From the NCBI GenBank assembly GCA_016215115.1, contig JACRLN010000024.1, positions 35,337 to 99,336 of the forward strand: 64,000 nucleotides of DNA. The letters are read 5' to 3'. A program made the position numbers and the translations under genes. The notes under the pieces were generated by a model. That model was not told where the DNA came from and did not search any database. It saw only the letters and a list, made by a program, of their open reading frames with translations. This DNA comes from Nitrospirota bacterium. GTDB lineage: Bacteria > Nitrospirota > Thermodesulfovibrionia > UBA6902. Shown in pieces: positions 12,389-63,550 of the stretch (position 1 is the stretch's first letter; each line of letters begins with the position of its first letter).

Positions 12389-12418
12389 GAGCAAAAATAG
12401 AGTAGAATAAGTACATAA

Positions 12419-12493
12419 GCGCGGAAGAGCAGAAGCGCGGAAGTAAAGAAAATAAAAAGACTTTCGGGCTTTCGGGCTTACGAACTTCCGAGC
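12419..12493. repeat. Family D element: imperfect inverted repeat made of degenerate 7-8-mers (GGAAGAG CAGAAGC GCGGAAG ... ACTTTCG GGCTTTCG ... GAACTTCC)
   Basis: Seen directly between porB and tRNA-Asn. Similar elements at 26421-26510, 37461-37540 and 63481-63550. Confidence 0.7.
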
Positions 12494-15989: not shown

Positions 15990-16675
15990 GGAACACCCTG
16001 AATATTGGTAAAGAACCAAATTTCCAGATAATAGTCATAACATCTGCAATCCTGCATCTGCTTCTGATTACCCTTATAGTCGTTCCGCTAAAAACAAGGA
16101 AAGATGAGTATAAAAGCTATTTTGTGAATCTTGTAGGTCCCATTGAATCTGTCAGAGAAACAAAAGGCAATGAAAATAATCACCTATCCCCTTTAGTAAA
16201 AGAGAATGAACTAAGCAAACCTCTGCCAAAAGCGGATATGTCTTTGGAGCCTTCCGACAAAGTATCAAAAGAAATAAGTAGGATGAGCGCCATAAGTGTA
16301 TTATCAAAACTGAAAAAGAAAAAAGAAGCGGGGACGGCTCATGAGATAGAAATTATAAGGCAAAAAATACAGGCAAGCGTTGCAAAGGGTCCCGGTATTC
16401 CAGGTGCTGTACAATCAATGAAATCCGATTCATATTATTCATTGATTACTCGCAAGATTTGGAGTGAATGGATTTATCCTGAAACCGGTTCTGCAGGACT
16501 TGAAGTGATTATAGCTGTAAAGTTAGACCGGGAGGGAAAGGTTATTTCACACGAAATTGAAAAATCTTCCGGCAACAGCCTCTTTGACCGCTCTGCCTTA
16601 AAAGCAATATCGAAAGCCAGCCCACTGCCGCCGCCTCCCGTTGAAATTGAAATAGGCGTGAGGTTTTATCTGTGA
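15986..16675 (+). CDS. tolA: TolA/TonB-family protein (C-terminal TonB-like domain)
   Basis: N-terminal TM anchor, charged linker, and a C-terminal TonB_C-like domain ending in PPPVEIEIGVRF. Position between tolR and tolB. Confidence 0.6.
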   Translation: MRNTLNIGKEPNFQIIVITSAILHLLLITLIVVPLKTRKDEYKSYFVNLVGPIESVRETKGNENNHLSPLVKENELSKPLPKADMSLEPSDKVSKEISRMSAISVLSKLKKKKEAGTAHEIEIIRQKIQASVAKGPGIPGAVQSMKSDSYYSLITRKIWSEWIYPETGSAGLEVIIAVKLDREGKVISHEIEKSSGNSLFDRSALKAISKASPLPPPPVEIEIGVRFYL

Positions 16676-17949
16676 AAAGTCAGCAGTCAGAAACAAGGAG
16701 TAAGGGGTCAGGAATAAGGGGTTTAATTTCAAATTTTAAATTTCAAATTTTTATTTTTTTACTTATTACTTGTCACTTGTCGCTTGTCACTGTTTCTGAC
16801 GCCAAAGTCTACATCGACATCACATCACCTGCTATTCAGAAGCTCCCAATATCAATAACAGCTAAAGGCGCTCCTGAGGCAAAAGAGATTGAGTCGATCA
16901 TAATAAATGACCTTGATTTCACAGGACTATTTTCTTTTGTCGCTCCGGAGGTCCCCGGGGCTGAGATCATTGTGCGATCTGATGTTGATGTTTCATTAAA
17001 TGAAATAACTGTTCTCTGGTCTATCATTGATTTAGTTGAAAACAAAGAAGCGCTCAAGAAACGAAATACCGCATCCAGAAAAAGTATCCGTGCAATAGCC
17101 CATAACATATCAAACGATATTTATAAATTTATAACTGAAAAGGAAGGGGTTTTCAGGACAAAAATTTCCTATCTTGTATCCGTATCACCGGGGAATAAAG
17201 AACTGTATTTAATGGACTGGGATGGATATAGCCCGATAAAGGTAATACCGGTCGGTTTAACCTCAAGTCATGCATGGTCGAATGACAGCCGTTTTCTCAT
17301 ATATTCATCAGAGAGAAACAGGGCCTGGAAGATATATTTCTTCGATATTAATGATTTCAGAGAAATTGTGCTGTTTTCCTCAAACGGACTAAACCTTGTC
17401 GGGAACTCCTCACCGCGGGATGAGATAGCGTTCTCATCATCCAAAGACGGCAATTCAGAAATATATACTATAAATAAAGACGGAAGCAATCTTCGAAAAC
17501 TTACGCATTCATTCGGAATTGATGTTTCCCCGGTGTTTTCTCCTGATGGATCCTCCATAGCCTTAGTATCAGACAGAGGAGGTTCTCCGCAGATATATAT
17601 AATGGATTCAAATGGAAGCGGGATAAGAAGAATAACGTTTGAAGGTTCATATAACACATCTCCCACATGGTCTCCTGACGGAAAATGGATAGCTTATACC
17701 GGAATGAAGGATGGCAAAAATCAGATTTTCATGGTAAAATCTGACGGAACAGGACTAAGACAACTTACTTTCAACGGTAATAACGAAAGTCCATCATTGT
17801 CTCCCGATGGTCTGTTTTTAGCATTTGATTCTGACAGAGATGGCAAGCGCGGTATTTACATTATGCGACTCAATGGAGATGAACAGAGAAGGATTACACC
17901 AAAGGATACAAAAGCCATGGCGCCAAAATGGTCGCCGTATTTTAATTAA
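16672..17949 (+). CDS. tolB: Tol-Pal system beta-propeller protein TolB
   Basis: TolB N-terminal domain plus a WD40-like propeller with repeated SPDG motifs. The N-terminal extension and signal-peptide region are encoded by a 7-mer tandem repeat (ACTTGTC x3). Confidence 0.8.
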   Translation: MKSQQSETRSKGSGIRGLISNFKFQIFIFLLITCHLSLVTVSDAKVYIDITSPAIQKLPISITAKGAPEAKEIESIIINDLDFTGLFSFVAPEVPGAEIIVRSDVDVSLNEITVLWSIIDLVENKEALKKRNTASRKSIRAIAHNISNDIYKFITEKEGVFRTKISYLVSVSPGNKELYLMDWDGYSPIKVIPVGLTSSHAWSNDSRFLIYSSERNRAWKIYFFDINDFREIVLFSSNGLNLVGNSSPRDEIAFSSSKDGNSEIYTINKDGSNLRKLTHSFGIDVSPVFSPDGSSIALVSDRGGSPQIYIMDSNGSGIRRITFEGSYNTSPTWSPDGKWIAYTGMKDGKNQIFMVKSDGTGLRQLTFNGNNESPSLSPDGLFLAFDSDRDGKRGIYIMRLNGDEQRRITPKDTKAMAPKWSPYFN

Positions 17950-18528: not shown

Positions 18529-18594
18529 CATTCAATTAACCACAGAGAACACTGAGGATCTGAATAGAAGATATGAAGTTGAGAAGTTAGGAAG

Positions 18595-19632
18595 ATGAAA
18601 AGGAAATTATATATGAGATTAAAGAATCTTAAAAACAGCCTTTTCATTCTATCCGCTGTCTTCTGTCTTCTTTGTTCTGTTCTAATATTCACCGGATGCG
18701 CTACAACAGAAGATGTGAATAGAACGCAGTATGATACCAATTTATTAAAAACCGAGGTCCGGGATATAAAGGAAAAATTATCTTCACCGCTTCAAAAGGA
18801 AAAACTTGTCACGCTTGACAAAAAACTGCAGGAAATTCAGAGCACACAGGAATTAACTTCTAAATCAGTTTCAGACCTGCTGATTCAATTCCAGTCTCTC
18901 ACAACAGAATTCCGTGTTCTTACCGGCCGCTTTGAAGAATCACGCTATTATGCTGAAAAAGTTTCGACAGAAATGAAGTCTGAAAAAGAAAAACTTGCCG
19001 CTCAATTGAAGGAGTTGGAACTCTCAATTGATGATTTAAAGAAAAGGGTTGCATTAGCGGAAAAAATAGCCTCTCCTGACTTGAAGGAGGAAGCAAACCC
19101 GGCAGAAGAGAAGAAAACTGTTGAAGAAGCAAAGACGGTCGAGGAAACGAAAAAGGCTCAGGAGTCAGAAAAGAAAGGGCTCGAGAAACCTGAAGATAAA
19201 AAAGAAGCTCAAAAAACTGAACGCAAGAAAGAAATAACAAAAACGGATGTGAAAGATGTCTATCTAACCGGTTATCAGGCCTTCAAGGAAGGCAAAACTG
19301 CGGAGGCAAGAGAAAACTTCATGTCTGTGCTCAAAGATTATCCTGACAATGAATATTCGGACAATGCGCGTTTCTGGATGGCTGAAAGTTACTATAAGGA
19401 AAAGAACTATGAAGACGCCATCCTTGTATATGAAGAACTTTTAAAAAAGAATCCTAAAAGCGACAAGGCGTCAGGCGCATTGTGGAAGCAGGGATTGTCT
19501 TTTTATGCTTTGAAAGACGAAAAGACAGGCAAGATAGTTCTGGAGAAACTGATAGAGCAATTCCCAAATTCTGAACAGGCACTGCTTGCAAAAAAGAAGC
19601 TTGGCAAAACCCCCCCTTCAAAGAAGAAATAA
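18595..19632 (+). CDS. cpoB: Tol-Pal cell-division coordinator CpoB/YbgF (coiled coil + TPR)
   Basis: Lipoprotein-like signal (LIFTGC), a long coiled-coil region and C-terminal TPR repeats, last gene of the tol-pal cluster. The start may be at the downstream Met (MRLKNL). Confidence 0.7.
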   Translation: MKRKLYMRLKNLKNSLFILSAVFCLLCSVLIFTGCATTEDVNRTQYDTNLLKTEVRDIKEKLSSPLQKEKLVTLDKKLQEIQSTQELTSKSVSDLLIQFQSLTTEFRVLTGRFEESRYYAEKVSTEMKSEKEKLAAQLKELELSIDDLKKRVALAEKIASPDLKEEANPAEEKKTVEEAKTVEETKKAQESEKKGLEKPEDKKEAQKTERKKEITKTDVKDVYLTGYQAFKEGKTAEARENFMSVLKDYPDNEYSDNARFWMAESYYKEKNYEDAILVYEELLKKNPKSDKASGALWKQGLSFYALKDEKTGKIVLEKLIEQFPNSEQALLAKKKLGKTPPSKKK

Positions 19633-51591: not shown

Positions 51592-51924
51592 TTACAAATT
51601 TTTCAACCTCACAAAAATCAGCTTGCCTGTCCTTCCTCTTTTGTCCTCTCTTCTGCTTATTGTATTTGTATGAGTATCATAATCGAGCGTCTCCTCTTCA
51701 TAATCCTCCGGCATCAACGTTAATGCCTTATCAATATCGCCCTTGCATAAAAAAGTCAAAGCATCCAGACATATCTCTCCAAGGTTATGCCCTCTGCGGT
51801 CTAATACATACACTGCCCTGCATGTACATATGCCGCCGGTAATCTCAAGTGATTTAATACGAATGTCAACAGGGTTTGCCAGATAATTATCACAAAATGG
51901 ACATTGTAAAGGTTGTCTTCTCAT
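51592..51924 (-). CDS. small cysteine-containing hypothetical protein (CPFC ... CTC ... C...C)
   Basis: 110 aa with an N-terminal zinc-ribbon-like CPFCDN ... GGICTCRAV. Wedged between dsrN and dsrC, overlapping the dsrN stop. Confidence 0.4.
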   Translation of the reverse strand: MRRQPLQCPFCDNYLANPVDIRIKSLEITGGICTCRAVYVLDRRGHNLGEICLDALTFLCKGDIDKALTLMPEDYEEETLDYDTHTNTISRREDKRGRTGKLIFVRLKNL

Positions 51925-53546
51925 GGTTTTATCGAGGTATCCTTAAACTTCCTTGCACATCTCACCAACCCATCCGCCCATTCAGGCGCTCCAATTGCAT
52001 GAAGATGTGTATATGCAGCCAATACATTTTTGTAGCACATTCCGTCTTTGCCATCTACGATACCCTTCCCGCGTCTGACGTTGAATGCAAAATATATTTG
52101 CTCTGAAAATCCCCCTACATCCCCCATTGTAGGGGCGACCCGGCGAGTCGCCCCTACGGTTGAGAGGGGATCTATTTCAAGAACTCGCGAATAATGAAAC
52201 TCATGTCCCTTAAGAACGGTCTTATCGGGAAAGTATTGATTAGCTTTTTCAACCTCAACAATTGTATAACCATGCGCCTGCGGTTTTTTCTCAAGCCCAA
52301 AAGTTATCGGAAGGGCGCCAACCATCGGATATGTCTTGTTGCCTAAAACAAGACTTTTACCAAGATACATCAGCCCGCCGCATTCGGCATATACAGGAAG
52401 CCCGTCCTGAATTGCATCAAACAATGAATTCCTGAAACTTATATTATCAGCCAATGCTATCGCATGTGTTTCAGGGAAACCTCCGCCCATGTAAAGCGCG
52501 TCTATTTCGGGAAGTTTTGTTTCTCTCAGAGGGCTCACTTCGATCAGACTGGCTCCCCTTTTCTCAAGCTCTTCAAAATTCTCCTGGTAGTAAAATTGAA
52601 AAGCAGAATCTCGGATGATACCGATTTTGACTACGGAGCTGGAAGTTGGAGGTTGGGGGTTAGCTTGACCCTTGACACTAATCCCTAATCCCTTATCCCT
52701 TATCCCTGTCTCCAGAGGAGACGCTTCATTGGCAATTTTCAATACTTGATCGATATCAATATATTTCTCTCCTATGTCAGCAACTAATGCCAAAGATTCT
52801 TCAACGTCCTGCCGTTCCTGGAAAGGGGTTAAGCCCATATGCCTTTCAGGAAAAGGGTCTTTCTTTAATCTTGGGATGGCGCCCACCACAGGCAATTTAC
52901 ACCTTTTTTCTATTGCTTTTTTTATCAGGGTCTCCTGCCTGTTTGTCGCAATCTGGTTAAGAACGATACCACCTATTGCAACATCTGCATCCATCTGCTG
53001 GCATCCCAGGACCATTGCGGCAATTGTATTGGTTGCCTTTGTGCAGTCAACAATAATTATTACCGGAGTTTTTAATAATTTGGCCAGTTCAGCGGTGCTA
53101 TAAGTGCCCTCATCATCAACTCCGTCAAACAAGCCCCTATTACCTTCGATGATGGCAATCTGAGTGGAGAGTGGAGAGTTTGGAGTTAGGAGTTCGGATT
53201 CTTTGATTTTGGATTTCAGATTTCGAATTTCGGATCTCAATTCTGTCTTACTTTTGCACTTCTGCACTTTTGCACTTCTGTACTTATCATATGTATGCGA
53301 GATAAAAGACCCAAGCGCCTGCTCCGGCTTCATCATGAAGAGGTCCAGATTGTAACATGGAGTCCCGGCCGTCTTTGCAAGCCAGCCCGCGTCAATATAA
53401 TCAGGCCCTTTCTTAAAAGGTGTAACAAGCAAGCCTCTTTTTCTGAATAAAGAAACAAGACATAAAGAAAGGATAGTCTTTCCGCTCCCACCCCTGAGAC
53501 CGGAAACAACTATCCTTGGTATTGAGAAATTCTGTGATTGGGTCAT
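51921..53546 (-). CDS. dsrN: DsrN, cobyrinic acid a,c-diamide synthase (CbiA/CobB) homolog, putative sirohaem amidase
   Basis: P-loop (VVSGLRGGSGKT), a CobB/CbiA ATPase domain and a C-terminal class-I amidotransferase-like domain (GHEFHYS ... YTHLHAIG). Carries three in-frame repeat-derived segments (52107-52172, 52640-52720, 53160-53290). Confidence 0.8.
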   Translation of the reverse strand: MTQSQNFSIPRIVVSGLRGGSGKTILSLCLVSLFRKRGLLVTPFKKGPDYIDAGWLAKTAGTPCYNLDLFMMKPEQALGSFISHTYDKYRSAKVQKCKSKTELRSEIRNLKSKIKESELLTPNSPLSTQIAIIEGNRGLFDGVDDEGTYSTAELAKLLKTPVIIIVDCTKATNTIAAMVLGCQQMDADVAIGGIVLNQIATNRQETLIKKAIEKRCKLPVVGAIPRLKKDPFPERHMGLTPFQERQDVEESLALVADIGEKYIDIDQVLKIANEASPLETGIRDKGLGISVKGQANPQPPTSSSVVKIGIIRDSAFQFYYQENFEELEKRGASLIEVSPLRETKLPEIDALYMGGGFPETHAIALADNISFRNSLFDAIQDGLPVYAECGGLMYLGKSLVLGNKTYPMVGALPITFGLEKKPQAHGYTIVEVEKANQYFPDKTVLKGHEFHYSRVLEIDPLSTVGATRRVAPTMGDVGGFSEQIYFAFNVRRGKGIVDGKDGMCYKNVLAAYTHLHAIGAPEWADGLVRCARKFKDTSIKP

Positions 53547-57305: not shown

Positions 57306-57419
57306 CAGATTAGAAGTTTAGCAGATAGAAATTTAAAATTGTAAGGGGGCCTGGCATGCCGTGCCCCTACTGGAAACTGGAAATAAAAACTGTTACAATG
57401 AAACCTCTTGCAAAAATCT

Positions 57420-58488: not shown

Positions 58489-60675
58489 ATGGAGCGGGAA
58501 AGCAGGATAAAGGACGAAATTATAGGCATCCTTGCCATTCTTATCGGTCTCGTTGTCATCATAAGCATTATAAGCCACAACCGCTGGGATCAATCACTTT
58601 TTACCTATAACACTTATGAATTAAAAAATCTTCTGGGCCGTTTCGGGGCCAACCTATCAGAAATCCTTCTGCAGGCTGTCGGTCTTTCCTCCTATATAAT
58701 TCCAATAATCTTTCTGATTTTTGGAATAAAGAAGGTTTTTGGCAAAGCAACAAACCAGAAACCTGTTTTATTTATTGTTACAGTCGTAATCCTGATTATT
58801 TCAACATCCTCGCTCTTTACTCTTTTCCTCGGAGGTGATTCCGGCGGCGCTGCAGGAGTATTAATAACAGAGCTGACCAATAAAACTGTTTCATCAATCG
58901 GTTCTCTGCTGCTTTTTGCAACCTTAACGCTTGTTTCTCTGATGTACATTATTCAATTCTCTGTAGCAGATCTGGTAAGAAAGACAAAAAGCAAAATAAT
59001 TTTTGGCACCCAGGCAATCTCTGCCGTAGCGGCTAAAAAGAAAGAGAAAGAACAGCCACAAATAAAAGAAAATAGCGCCACTTCTGAAATACCGGTTCAG
59101 CCGGAGATCGCAGAGCCGGTAGAAATGCCGGAAATACCAAGTATTCAGGAGCCCCTGCCTCTTGCACCCGAGGCAAGAATGAAACCAAAAGAAAAACCTT
59201 TTATGAAACCCTCGGAAAAGGTCGAAGGAGATTATAAACTCCCCGGCGTTGATCTTTTAAAAGACCCTTCACCGTCAAAGTCCAAACCTACAAAAGAAGA
59301 GCTGTTACAACAGTCTGAATTGTTAGAGAAAAAACTCCAGGACTATTCAATTGAAGGAAAAGTCACTTATGTGTCCCCCGGTCCGGTTGTAACAATGTTT
59401 GAATTCGAACCTGCGCCGGGCATTAAGATCAATAAAATCATGTCTCTTTCAGATGACCTTGCAATGGCGATGAAGGCAACGAGCATCCGCATTTCACCAA
59501 TACACGGCAGGTCCACGCTCGGCATCGAAGTGCCAAATCAGGAACGAGAAGATGTTTGTTTGAAAGAGCTTATTGTCTCTGATATATTCAGGAAAAGCCC
59601 TTCAAAATTGACCATCGCTCTCGGGAAAGACATATTCGGAACGCCTGTCATGGCGGACCTGAGCAAGATGCCTCATCTTCTTATTGCCGGAGCAACCGGC
59701 TCCGGTAAAAGCGTTGGAATGAACAGCATCGTGTTAAGCCTTTTATACAGGGCGACGCCAAAAGAAGTTAAGATGCTTATGATTGACCCCAAGATGCTTG
59801 AGCTCTCCGCTTATGCTGAAATTCCGCATCTTCTCATGCCTGTCATTACCTTGCCAAAAGAAGCTTCAAATGCGCTGAAGATGCTGGTATTTGAGATGGA
59901 GCGGCGTTACAGGCTTCTCGCAGAATCAGGGGCCAGGAACATCGAGACATACAATAAGAAATTTGAAATTTCAAATTTCAAATTTCAAATTAAAGAATCA
60001 GATTTTGAATCTCATTCTGCAACTGAACGTGAACCTCTCCCCTATATCGTTATCTTCATCGACGAACTTGCCGACCTCATGTTTGCGTCAGGACACGAAG
60101 TGGAAGACTCTATTGCGCGTCTGGCGCAGATGGCGCGGGCCGCCGGAATACACCTGATCCTGGCAACGCAAAGACCGTCTGTTGATGTAATCACGGGAAT
60201 AATAAAAGCTAACTTTCCATCAAGGATATCTTTTCAGGTCTCATCGAAACTGGACTCCCGGATAATCCTCGATACATACGGTGCAGATCAATTGTTAGGC
60301 AAAGGCGACATGCTCTTTGTCAGTCCGGGCAAAAAAATCAAAAGAATTCACGGCGCATATGTGAGTGAAGAAGAAATGAAACATGTTGTGGATTTTATTA
60401 AGACACAGGGCGGGCCTGATTATACATTGTTCGAGGATATTACCATTGAATCACGGGAAGGGGAGTTATCTGAGGACAAAGATGAACTCTATCTGCAGGC
60501 AAAAGATATTGTGCTGTCCACCGGTCAGGCGTCGATTTCATATATACAGCGCAGGATGAAAATAGGATACAACAGGGCAGCAAGGATTATGGAAATGCTC
60601 GAAGAAGAAGGCGTTGTCGGCCCTCCGGGTGAAGCTGGGAAACCAAGGGAGATATTATGGAAGAGAAAACAATGA
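58489..60675 (+). CDS. ftsK: DNA translocase FtsK/SpoIIIE
   Basis: Four N-terminal TM helices, a Pro/Glu linker, the motor domain (Walker A AGATGSGKSVGMNS, Walker B IVIFIDELADLM) and a C-terminal winged-helix gamma domain. Contains a heptamer-repeat-derived segment at about 59950-60010. Confidence 0.85.
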   Translation: MERESRIKDEIIGILAILIGLVVIISIISHNRWDQSLFTYNTYELKNLLGRFGANLSEILLQAVGLSSYIIPIIFLIFGIKKVFGKATNQKPVLFIVTVVILIISTSSLFTLFLGGDSGGAAGVLITELTNKTVSSIGSLLLFATLTLVSLMYIIQFSVADLVRKTKSKIIFGTQAISAVAAKKKEKEQPQIKENSATSEIPVQPEIAEPVEMPEIPSIQEPLPLAPEARMKPKEKPFMKPSEKVEGDYKLPGVDLLKDPSPSKSKPTKEELLQQSELLEKKLQDYSIEGKVTYVSPGPVVTMFEFEPAPGIKINKIMSLSDDLAMAMKATSIRISPIHGRSTLGIEVPNQEREDVCLKELIVSDIFRKSPSKLTIALGKDIFGTPVMADLSKMPHLLIAGATGSGKSVGMNSIVLSLLYRATPKEVKMLMIDPKMLELSAYAEIPHLLMPVITLPKEASNALKMLVFEMERRYRLLAESGARNIETYNKKFEISNFKFQIKESDFESHSATEREPLPYIVIFIDELADLMFASGHEVEDSIARLAQMARAAGIHLILATQRPSVDVITGIIKANFPSRISFQVSSKLDSRIILDTYGADQLLGKGDMLFVSPGKKIKRIHGAYVSEEEMKHVVDFIKTQGGPDYTLFEDITIESREGELSEDKDELYLQAKDIVLSTGQASISYIQRRMKIGYNRAARIMEMLEEEGVVGPPGEAGKPREILWKRKQ

Positions 60676-61409
60676 AAAAACAGTCAGCGGTAGGCAGCCA
60701 AAAAAATAAAGCAGAAGGTAAGAAGATAAGAAGATGGGAGGATAAGAAATCTCCACTTCTCAACTTCTTAACTTCTCAACTTCTCATACTCTGTTTACTT
60801 GTCACTTGTCACTTGTCACTTGTCACTATTGTTCATGCTGCCACCGTCGACGAAATTGTCAACGACATCCAGAAGAAGTTAGCTGAGATTCATGACATGA
60901 AAGGCACATTCTCTCAAACAAGCTATCTCAAAGATCTCGAGAAAACAGAAACGTATGCAGGCACATTTTACATAAAAAAACCTTCCGGTATAATGTGGGA
61001 ATATATACCCCCCCGCGATGAAAAAATTATAATTAACGGGACGGAAACGTGGGCTTACAAAAAGTCACAAAAACAGGCAATAAAAACCAGATTCAGCAAA
61101 GAAGCGTATAGCCAGGTCCCTATAGCATTGTTAAACGGTCTCGAAAATCTCGGTGCTGATTTTGACATAACGATCATGGAACAGGACACGCTGCATTTGA
61201 AGCCAAAACATCAGATGGGATTCATTCAGGAGATAATCCTCAAGACAAGCTCCAGGAATTTCCCTGTAAAAATGCTTAAAGTATTGGACGTGTACGGCAA
61301 TAAAATTACCATAGAACTCACAGATATAAAAACTAACAATGGACTTGATGATTCACTTTTTACTTTTACAGCGCCTCCGGGAGTTGAGGTGTTTGATATG
61401 ACCCAGTGA
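60657..61409 (+). CDS. lolA: outer-membrane lipoprotein carrier protein LolA (LolA-like fold)
   Basis: Signal peptide, then an open beta-barrel-type sequence (GTFSQTSYLKDLEKTETYAGTFYIKKPSGIMWEY). The start is uncertain (60657 or 60672). The N-terminal extension and signal h-region are encoded by an (ACTTGTC)x4 array. Confidence 0.65.
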   Translation: MEEKTMKKQSAVGSQKNKAEGKKIRRWEDKKSPLLNFLTSQLLILCLLVTCHLSLVTIVHAATVDEIVNDIQKKLAEIHDMKGTFSQTSYLKDLEKTETYAGTFYIKKPSGIMWEYIPPRDEKIIINGTETWAYKKSQKQAIKTRFSKEAYSQVPIALLNGLENLGADFDITIMEQDTLHLKPKHQMGFIQEIILKTSSRNFPVKMLKVLDVYGNKITIELTDIKTNNGLDDSLFTFTAPPGVEVFDMTQ

Positions 61410-63428: not shown

Positions 63429-63480
63429 TCTCATCATATTGAATATATAATATAAATACCACAGAGACACGGAGTATAAA

Positions 63481-63550
63481 GTTCGGAAGCACGGAAGTTC
63501 AGAAGTTGGGAAGCCTTTTACTTCCGAGCTTCCAGACTTCCGCACTTTTC
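63481..63550. repeat. Family D element (CGGAAGCA CGGAAGTT CAGAAGTT GGGAAGCC TTTT ACTTCCGA GCTTCCAG ACTTCCGC ACTTTTC)
   Basis: Seen directly. An inverted array of GGAAG/CTTCC-containing 8-mers. The ORF 63204-63545 is an artefact. Confidence 0.7.

Follow-up and report, generated by a model that had tools for sequence, protein, structure and literature searches.

Tandem arrays of heptanucleotide units are known from several bacterial lineages. Among simple sequence repeats (SSRs), the described cases include GGGAATC in Xanthomonas, GGGGAYT in Nostoc and the STRR heptamers of Calothrix/Anabaena (PMC4692102), and PMC4692102 also cites Mrazek et al. 2007 for the observation that 7-nt SSRs are over-represented in general. 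Direct repeats of TAACTGA have been found in marine Beggiatoaceae, some Cyanobacteria and some Bacteroidetes (PMC4679880), and the repeat segments of Borg elements are enriched in extracellular and signal-peptide proteins (PMC9879509). Here we describe a heptanucleotide array that lies in frame within the motor domain of ftsK on a 64,000-nt stretch of contig JACRLN010000024.1 of a Nitrospirota bacterium; this whole stretch is referred to below as the window. The array is probably a microsatellite acting at the level of the DNA, which was born in situ, has since been re-homogenised and is tolerated as neutral loop filler. The host gene, the array and the protein landmarks around it are as follows.

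58489..60675, plus strand: ftsK, 728 aa, with four transmembrane segments (4TM), linker, alpha, RecA-like beta (FtsK_SpoIIIE) and gamma regions (from the open reading frame (ORF) and Pfam).
59689..59712, plus strand: Walker A / P-loop GATGSGKS, aa 401-408 (motif; invariant in 74 homologs).
59956..60039, plus strand: variable loop K490-L517 (KKFEISNFKFQIKESDFESHSATEREPL), between the conserved end of the NIETYN helix and the strand that carries Walker B.
59959..59991, plus strand: heptanucleotide array (AAATTTC)x4.7 (Tandem Repeats Finder (TRF): period 7, 96% matches, score 59).
59992..60021, plus strand: degenerate tail of the lineage-specific loop, AAAGAATCAGATTTTGAATCTCATTCTGCA, peptide KESDFESHSA, weakly heptamer-periodic.
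60043..60078, plus strand: Walker B strand YIVIFIDELADL, aa 519-530 (motif; conserved in all homologs aligned).

The ftsK product is 100% identical to MBI5098897.1, annotated as FtsK of a Nitrospirota metagenome-assembled genome (MAG), and it aligns with the solved motors of E. coli and P. aeruginosa FtsK, 2IUS (4e-117) and 2IUT, at E values of about 1e-117. Its Pfam matches (PF13491, PF17854, PF01580 and PF09397) all scored above cut-off, and the parts that define an FtsK/SpoIIIE translocase are all present, namely the 4TM region, the alpha domain, the RecA-like beta domain with Walker A and B and the gamma winged-helix. The PF01580 (FtsK_SpoIIIE) match spans aa 358-565 in one uninterrupted stretch across the repeat. 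The array is read in the frame of ORF 58489..60675, and its units, in order AAATTTG AAATTTC AAATTTC AAATTTC AAATT, encode KFEISNFKFQI, which is K491-I501 of the loop. A first-pass annotation of the window had reported a heptamer repeat in frame in ftsK between the Walker A and Walker B regions; the string that it quoted was located at window 59959-60011, and the frame, the translation (K490-KFEISNFKFQIKESDFESH) and the position between aa 401-408 and aa 519-530 were all as it had described. In the +1 frame an 88-aa ORF (59891..60157, plus strand) is also open across the array (..NLKFQISNFKLKNQILNL..), because AAATTTC is open in all three sense frames; no evidence was found that this ORF is a gene.

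The site itself is one at which FtsK proteins differ. The flanks ..GARNIExYN and LPYIVIFIDELADL were invariant in an alignment of 120 homologs, in which the slice including the loop measured 41-60 aa, and the alignment bore out the expectation that this is a variable loop, with both length and sequence changing from protein to protein. The E. coli (KIAEADRMMRPIPDPYWKPGDSMDAQHPVLKKE) and P. aeruginosa proteins have unrelated loops of similar length at the same site. P-loop ATPases generally have the nucleotide and the N-terminal end of the Walker-B strand on opposite sides of the sheet. By this topology the loop, which joins the post-P-loop helix to the N-terminus of the Walker-B strand, would be placed at the sheet edge away from the ATP site. 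An AlphaFold2 (AF2) model of the motor domain extends the helix preceding the loop to K502, with a predicted local distance difference test score (pLDDT) of about 73 at local residues 161-170, and then drops below 50 at local residues 175-185 (aa 502-512). Owing to the low diversity of the underlying alignment the model was poor as a whole (mean pLDDT 60), and it hints weakly at a helix as far as K502 followed by disorder. In E. coli only the N-terminal membrane domain of FtsK is essential, and the C-terminal motor is required for chromosome dimer resolution, not for viability. The earlier description of the repeat as tolerated in frame in an essential gene was therefore apt as to the in-frame tolerance and, judged by these genetics, too strong as to the essentiality, the E. 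coli motor domain being dispensable for viability.

The periodicity is far beyond what the composition of the gene would produce. The longest lag-7 self-match in the ftsK coding sequence, allowing at most one mismatch, was 27 nt, while codon shuffles (n=2000) gave a mean of 7.4 and a maximum of 14, and the longest runs at lags other than 7 in the real sequence were 7-11 nt. With 4.7 head-to-tail copies, the array exceeds the three copies of a short unit that, beyond chance, define a microsatellite, and TRF ranked it among the three best period-7/8 arrays of the window. Lag-7 identity was 0.79 in the first 45 nt of the loop versus 0.51 over all 81 nt. Allowing up to two mismatches, the 14-mer AAATTTCAAATTTC was matched 15 times in the window (3.9 expected). 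Its matches include 16724-16751 and 53218-53231, and related units are present at 16725-16750 and 53205-53235, in agreement with the earlier proposal that the ftsK repeat shares its vocabulary with 16725-16760 and 53200-53240. Chance low complexity among AT-rich codons (K, F, I, N) might be entertained for a loop of 21% GC in a gene of 44% GC, but it has next to no probability, given that 0/2000 codon shuffles and 0/100 dinucleotide shuffles reached the observed run and match count, respectively, and that the site is periodic in about 10 independent orthologs. Nor is the repeat an assembly artefact, because independent assemblies of other samples place related arrays at the corresponding codons.

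Orthologs retrieved by a protein search grade in identity from 94% down to about 61%, and every one comes from a Nitrospirota metagenome bin. Close ortholog DNA was obtained for 12 loci by exact-protein look-up and for a 13th, L091, by a metagenome contig scan; the genome and metagenome contig scans otherwise returned almost only distant relatives, which served as outgroups and as a negative control of 154 genes. The neighbourhood bacA-ftsK-lolA-deacetylase-nusG was common to all 13 ortholog loci. A peptide with a 7-residue period (KF-x-I-x-N-x) was present in most of the closest orthologs (about 79% identity or more), and in more distant orthologs the loop is shorter, unrelated and rich in serine and acidic residues (KKIEAASRSKSSKDDEG..). 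With all loops set to one register, beginning at the third codon after ..YN, the units were these:

Window: AAATTTG AAATTTC AAATTTC AAATTTC AAATTAA.
L082: as the window, with two point changes.
L081: AAGCTCA AAATTCA AAATTCA AAATTCA AAATTAA.
L088, L086 and L083: AAATTCA-type.
L087: AAATTCG AAATTCG AAATTTA AAATTCG.
L090: degenerate AAATTCG-type.
L172: mixed, AAATTCA and AAACTCA, then AAATTCG twice.
L084: weak periodicity.
L089: no array.
L091: a short CGAAATY x3 array.

Over the first 45 nt of the loop, lag-7 identity was 0.58-0.79 in the clearly array-bearing genomes, 0.47 in L090, 0.34 in L084 and 0.16 in L089. When 168 FtsK genes were ranked by their longest lag-7 run upstream of Walker B, the top ten all belonged to this clade, and the 154 others had runs of at most 10 nt. 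FtsK loops of outgroup Thermodesulfovibrionia and other Nitrospirota (66-69% identity) are non-periodic, about 18-20 aa long, and start with AAT AAA AAA ATT GAA (N-K-K-I-E); the clade array begins exactly on these codons (AAG AAA TTT GAA ATT TC..). The tail AAAGAATCAGATTTTGAATCTCATTCTGCA is partly kept within the closest ortholog group, and ..ESHSAIERE is conserved in the group-A orthologs. On a rough neighbour-joining tree, array-bearing loops occur in most sublineages of the clade and array-less loops in P0013, P0015/19 and P0024/25/27. A single origin with losses is the simpler reading of this pattern. The array is inherited at matching codons through a subclade of Thermodesulfovibrionia-like Nitrospirota MAGs; it therefore has a long history in the clade and did not enter this genome as a recent private insertion.

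The units change in concert within each genome. Identity between units was 0.817 within a genome and 0.687 between orthologous ordinal positions, and at unit positions 6-7 the corresponding values were 0.83 and 0.39. When genome labels were permuted within unit positions, the observed value was never reached in 10,000 trials (p about 1e-4). The edge unit AAATTAA was orthologously conserved, as expected at array borders. Concerted change and homogenisation at the level of the unit, by which SSR evolution is recognised, are thus both seen at the ftsK array. At four-fold synonymous sites of the motor, the window differs from L087 or L088 by 0.58-0.63, and Jukes-Cantor decay from that divergence predicts an identity of 0.37-0.42 between once-identical units. 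The arrays show 0.61-0.79, and because this lag-7 identity exceeds the neutral-decay expectation, the periodicity is younger than the species splits. It had been suggested earlier that a peptide shared by orthologs would show that the segment is not repeat-derived. The sharing was indeed found, but the conclusion did not follow from it, since the orthologs carry heptamer arrays at the site and share the peptide because they share the array, whose units differ between genomes and are homogenised within them.

Synonymous codon choice bears on the level at which the pattern is maintained. In the arrays, Ile is encoded by ATT in 14/16 codons versus 30% elsewhere in the same genes (p=4e-6), Asn by AAT in 16/19 versus 44%, and Lys by AAA in 31/36 versus 64%. 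Because synonymous codons follow the repeat unit in this way, the constraint acts on the DNA and not on the peptide. Amino acid identity to orthologs was 6-74% in the loop versus 92-97% in the rest of the motor, and in several close pairs the nucleotide divergence of the loop exceeded synonymous divergence (0.319 vs 0.184; 0.391 vs 0.232); the loop diverges at about the synonymous, or neutral, rate. For example, the ftsK sequences of L171 and L172 are 95.4% identical, yet 7/35 array bases differ.

The opposite arrangement would be one in which the peptide is what is maintained, a 7-residue motif K-F-x-I-x-N-x serving as an amphipathic helix extension or interaction surface on the FtsK hexamer, with the DNA periodicity as a by-product of a heptanucleotide being read three times to give a heptad. 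The motif is long-lived, with K, F, I and N at fixed spacing in most clade orthologs, and AF2 extends the preceding helix through K502 with moderate confidence (about 73). The conserved residues are, however, exactly those of the invariant AAATT core, the synonymous codons follow the unit too, and the variable residues switch along with the unit type (E/Q/K, S/Q/R, F/S). The loop has been lost or replaced in P0013, P0015/19 and P0024/25/27 and is absent from all outgroups while the motor is otherwise unchanged, and ISNFKFQI recurs in the unrelated signal peptides of TolB and LolA wherever the same DNA unit occurs; such recurrence arises because a heptamer array is translated into one and the same 7-aa cycle whichever frame is used. 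We regard selection on the peptide as an unlikely source of the pattern.

Loop length was constant within clusters of proteins of at least 90% identity although the sequence changes, and no copy-number polymorphism was found at the ftsK array either among the closest orthologs or within those clusters, for which selection for the reading frame is the probable explanation. A heptamer is not a multiple of three, so gain or loss of one or two units shifts the frame, and the array could in principle be a phase-variable contingency locus in which a change of 7 nt truncates FtsK after the P-loop, giving a reversible motor-off state with the N-terminal division domain kept. Only the latter domain is essential in E. 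coli, as noted above, and copy-number variation does occur elsewhere in the clade, as in the ACTTGTC array at the lolA start, which ranges from 4.1 to 9.6 copies. Against this, all 13 of 13 ortholog DNAs and about 30 close ortholog proteins are in frame with the unit number unchanged, as seen in consensus assemblies, where minority alleles are invisible; the array has just 4.7 copies, and its host is a housekeeping gene and not a surface, restriction-modification or lipopolysaccharide gene. Phase variation at this locus is accordingly very improbable.

Less probable still is a programmed -1 ribosomal frameshift that would give a truncated product. The pattern X_XXY_YYZ does occur in the zero frame as A_AAU_UUC at 59973-59979 (zero-frame codons TCA-AAT-TTC). 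The -1 frame, however, stops after 4 codons (CAA ATT TCA AAT TAA), RNA folding of 59930-60040 was not significant (z=-1.4, with 20/200 shuffles as good), and the slippery pattern is not conserved, as the ortholog units AAATTCA and AAATTCG give no X_XXY_YYZ. We give this explanation hardly any credence. No internal promoter or terminator was found in 59700-60900, and an Rfam scan of window 59500-61000 (E<=1) returned nothing at the array, with sub-threshold hairpin look-alikes at 60703-60803.

The ftsK array is one of many. The window contains 15 non-overlapping arrays of period-7/8 type (TRF score at least 40), as opposed to 0.47 expected (maximum 2) in dinucleotide shuffles. Across the loci of the clade (the window, L081-L091, L171 and L172; 257 kb), 87 period-7/8 arrays were detected, or 3.4 per 10 kb, compared with 1.1 per 10 kb in outgroup Nitrospirota and 0.43 per 10 kb in distant phyla. 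Copy number is not geometrically distributed. Of the clade arrays, 54/87 fall at 4-5 copies; the perfect period-7 runs level off between 3 and 4.5 copies, and none goes beyond 5. The arrays draw on dozens of different units, with AAATTTC-type the commonest class, and orthologous positions often carry different units in different genomes.

This abundance raises the question of whether the ftsK array was imported, with a dispersed repeat cassette as its source and insertion or gene conversion from a further AAATTTC array as the route. A possible donor is present in L082, L083, L091 and L172, whose ftsK-lolA junction, some 700 bp downstream, holds a perfect (AAATTTC)4.7-4.9 array. The AAATTTC type makes up 7/87 of the arrays in the clade loci, and the presence of AAATTTC inside ftsK in the window and L082, with AAATTCA in most other relatives, is compatible with conversion from a neighbour. 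On the other hand, there is no flank homology (the 17-nt junction of array and tail has 1 other 3-mismatch match in the window, versus 0.67 expected), the array starts exactly on the conserved N-K-K-I-E codons, and ftsK units differ from other arrays of the same genome, as in L083, where ftsK is AAACTCA-type and the junction array is perfect AAATTTC. Copies alike beyond the simple unit, which would be looked for in a dispersed mobile repeat of the kind represented by Rickettsia palindromic elements (RPEs), repetitive extragenic palindromic (REP) sequences or miniature inverted-repeat transposable elements, were not found for the ftsK array. Import is thus unlikely and a mobile-cassette origin unsupported, although conversion from the nearby junction array may contribute to homogenisation.

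Taken together, the concerted units, the excess periodicity, the synonymous bias, the unconserved peptide and the stable length lead to the reading given at the outset, a re-homogenised microsatellite whose total length is filtered to a multiple of three. The array would have arisen by replication slippage from an ancestral A-rich AAA-ATT-GAA, with a gain of roughly 21-42 nt; formation in situ is suggested by a start that coincides with the conserved N-K-K-I-E codons. The array would then have been re-homogenised repeatedly, through slipped-strand misalignment or conversion over short tracts, while purifying selection for the downstream motor would purge length variants that are not a multiple of three. 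The array would in this way write about 11 residues (about 22 with the degenerate tail) of a solvent-exposed, length-tolerant loop, and the peptide would be a passive filler, made up of a short helix extension and a disordered segment, with no specific role in DNA translocation. On a larger scale, 7-8-nt arrays of about 4-5 copies are in excess throughout the lineage, probably by mutation, and the ftsK array is one local instance; such arrays appear to settle where insertions are tolerated, i.e. in intergenic hairpins, signal peptides and surface loops.

Several observations sit less comfortably with this account. Copy number at the ftsK site is fixed (4 full units plus the edge unit in the closest group), and free slippage might be expected to give variants of plus or minus 21 nt. 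The peak at 4-5 copies and the stop beyond it in the clade as a whole are not predicted by simple slippage birth and death. Persistence through deep divergence, with synonymous sites near saturation, could reflect selection that we do not see, and the rough tree does not separate repeated hot-spot origins from one origin followed by three losses. Finally, the surface exposure of the loop is a suggestion drawn from the poor AF2 model together with topological inference.

The copy-number ceiling, together with the finding that one array composite serves different genes as signal peptide, also motivates a different idea, in which a dedicated, lineage-specific process makes and re-homogenises 7-8-nt arrays across the genome to about 4-5 units (about 30-35 nt) and its output is co-opted as coding sequence. 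Its agent might for instance be a particular polymerase, a repair activity or a protein gauging the length of arrays, and the process may also form the intergenic hairpins with periodic stems described below. If real, it would give Nitrospirota a hitherto undescribed source of protein loops and signal peptides, but we consider it rather unlikely and retain slippage with selection on total length as the preferred reading.

Other arrays in the window and its relatives also lie in coding sequence. The two that share units with the ftsK array, and those of the lolA start in relatives, are:

16725..16750, plus strand: AATTTCA/AATTTTA array, 3.7 copies, in frame, peptide ISNFKFQI, in the signal-peptide region of a TolB-like gene (16672..17949).
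53205..53235, minus strand: array of GATTTCR/AATTTCG (plus-strand words), translated EIRNLKSKIKESE, in a CobB/CbiA-like amidotransferase gene (51921..53546, minus strand).
L083 12181-12254, L082 3255-3343, L091 2305-2400 and L172 just after 6436: LolA signal-peptide arrays.

The TolB-like gene, which has Pfam PD40 repeats, starts with ..GLISNFKFQIFIFLLITCHLSLVTVSDA|KVYIDI, an AATTTCA array followed by an ACTTGTC array, so that a composite of two arrays at 16696-16791 forms its signal peptide (..LISNFKFQIFIFLLITCHLSLVTVSDA|KVYIDI). LolA of L083, L082, L091 and L172 begins MKFQISNFKFQIF-LLLVICHLSLVT.., likewise from AAATTTC and ACTTGTC arrays. In these four relatives a perfect (AAATTTC)x4.7-4.9 encodes the n-region (MKFQISNFKFQIF..), and throughout the clade (ACTTGTC)x4 encodes the hydrophobic core ..LVTCHLSLVT.. 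(window 60713-60827, lolA ORF 60657..61409). The composite shared by LolA and TolB may be a common module or the result of convergence. In L171, just downstream of 8181, a REP-like palindrome replaces the AAATTTC array of the LolA n-region; the ftsK of L172 is 95% identical. The units found at the ftsK-lolA junction across the clade are CAGCAGT, CAGAAGT, CAGCGTT, AGAAGTC, AAAAGTC, AAATTTC or AGAAGATA.

The CobB/CbiA-like gene (Pfam CbiA/AAA_26/GATase_3; DsrN-like) is rich in repeats. Its EIRNLKSKIKESE array lies inside an insert of roughly 29 aa that is lacking in the L085 and L083 orthologs, which have other array-derived peptides at the same site; in L083 this is PYPLPLTPL, from (AGGGGTA)x4. 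In the window the insert is formed by four adjacent arrays at 53162-53285 (GAGTGGA, GAGTTAG, GATTTCG/AATTTCA and ACTTCTGC), translated on the minus strand. A mobile cassette common to this insert and the ftsK loop was considered and rejected, the likeness of ..ATTAAAGAATCAGA.. to ..ATCAAAGAATCCGA.. being at chance level. A second array-derived segment of the same gene, GIRDKGLGIS, is found at 52640-52707. In addition, REP-like GC-rich palindromes occur in frame (for example GGTAGGGGCGAACGGCCGTTCGCCCGTAC; peptide ..VGATRRVAPTMG..) at about 52000-52150 within 51921..53546 (minus strand), and also at 57340-57370, and one of them constitutes a 21-aa insert in the CobB-like protein. In L083 (3714-5145, minus strand) the gene was called as two overlapping ORFs of 206 and 286 aa, which may reflect a frameshift in this repeat-rich gene, either a real pseudogene or an assembly error.

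A further pair of arrays covers the start of a CpoB/YbgF-like ORF (18595..19632). A purine-rich 16-mer array at 18566-18602 spans the ribosome-binding region and the start, and a (CTGTCTT)x3.6 array at 18656-18680 encodes the core of a lipoprotein signal peptide, LSAVFCLLCSVLIF. The segment containing both arrays (18560-18690) folds into a hairpin stabler than shuffles (z=-3.6). Between genes, purine-rich octamer or heptamer arrays pair with reverse-complement arrays to form long hairpins with periodic stems (for example AAGTTCGG x4.4 ... ACTTCCGAG x2.8, and CACGGAGA ... TCTCCGTG), and two intergenic pairs of the window, at 63470-63550 and 12400-12490, folded better than shuffles (z=-4.4 and z=-3.3, respectively). 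In the single stretch scanned, window 59500-61000, no Rfam family matched array-pair hairpins. Those of the relatives are at the following positions:

L087 19343-19438 and 20028-20121: array-pair hairpins.
L088 14317-14462: array-pair hairpin.
L089 18497-18553: array-pair hairpin.

The gap between bacA and ftsK, 120 nt in the window, is a variable insertion site in relatives. It holds a DarT/Macro (DarTG-like) toxin-antitoxin island in L086 (3726-6834), small ParE-toxin/DUF2283 genes in L171 (3198-5811) and a GIY-YIG gene in L082 (552-935). Near the ruv genes, members of the bAvd / 23S_rRNA_IVP family were seen in L087 (18410-18793) and L088 (13713-14078 and 15550-15906); proteins of this family are accessory proteins of diversity-generating retroelements.

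For FtsK itself the array has little consequence, since the loop serves as filler and variability at this site was known before. Its value lies in offering a clean natural case of a microsatellite with a non-triplet unit staying in frame within a highly conserved motor and evolving in concert, in contrast to surveys that report such repeats to be depleted from coding regions. The analysis also flags a subclade whose density of 7-8-nt arrays is about 8 times that of distant genomes. Its arrays contribute genuine coding sequence, both for loops and for the n- and h-regions of signal peptides, and the lineage is therefore a candidate system in which to follow the birth of new protein segments from slippage-prone DNA. 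For the annotation of MAGs, the arrays are likely sites of frameshift errors and mis-called gene starts; lolA, for example, is called at 184-261 aa among relatives. In the literature searched, nothing specific was found on heptamer arrays in Nitrospirae or Thermodesulfovibrio, and no description was found of an array-rich Nitrospirota/Thermodesulfovibrionia subclade with array-supplied coding sequence.

How does this locus compare with the systems introduced at the beginning? It shares with the heptamer-array families a heptamer unit, few copies and many dispersed arrays, and departs from them in location and vocabulary, the ftsK array being within a conserved domain and the clade units numbering in the dozens. 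The heptamers of Xanthomonas, Nostoc and the STRR group likewise have a 7-nt unit in about 4 copies, form dispersed arrays in particular lineages, and vary in sequence and length between close relatives at conserved positions, for which polymerase slippage was proposed (PMC4692102). They lie between genes, however, and are scarcer than expected in coding regions; for the G-rich members, G-quadruplex formation is the explanation given (PMC4692102). The ftsK array is AT-rich, with no G-quadruplex possible, and lies in frame inside a conserved ATPase domain. The TAACTGA repeats are similar in being heptamers with 2-6 copies per set, hundreds of sets per genome and indels in 7-nt steps between strains, and they concentrate at gene starts, just upstream of start codons (PMC4679880). 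They differ in using one word genome-wide, whose stops in all forward frames exclude it from ORF interiors (PMC4679880), whereas the Nitrospirota clade uses many words and AAATTTC, as seen above, can be read through in any sense frame.

Borg elements offer a parallel for the outcome, since fast-evolving DNA repeats within their ORFs create new, mostly disordered segments, but all of their unit lengths are divisible by three (PMC9879509). In ftsK, with its 7-nt unit, constraint falls on the total length alone, and the peptide repeats every 7 aa (21 nt). The contingency loci of Haemophilus, Neisseria and Mycoplasma (e.g. PMC12721329) resemble the array in being non-triplet repeats within ORFs, where gain or loss of a unit shifts the frame. 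The ftsK array differs from them in its lack of length polymorphism among orthologs, its few copies and its housekeeping host. RPEs, reported by Ogata et al. in 2000, are said to be inserted in frame in housekeeping genes. They are dispersed mobile elements of about 100-150 bp with a conserved sequence, tolerated in surface segments without evident functional contribution. The ftsK array is like them in being in-frame repeat DNA tolerated in a surface segment and unlike them in being a local microsatellite with no flank homology. In any case, the array is an ordinary object, a long-unit SSR, in an unusual place and lineage.

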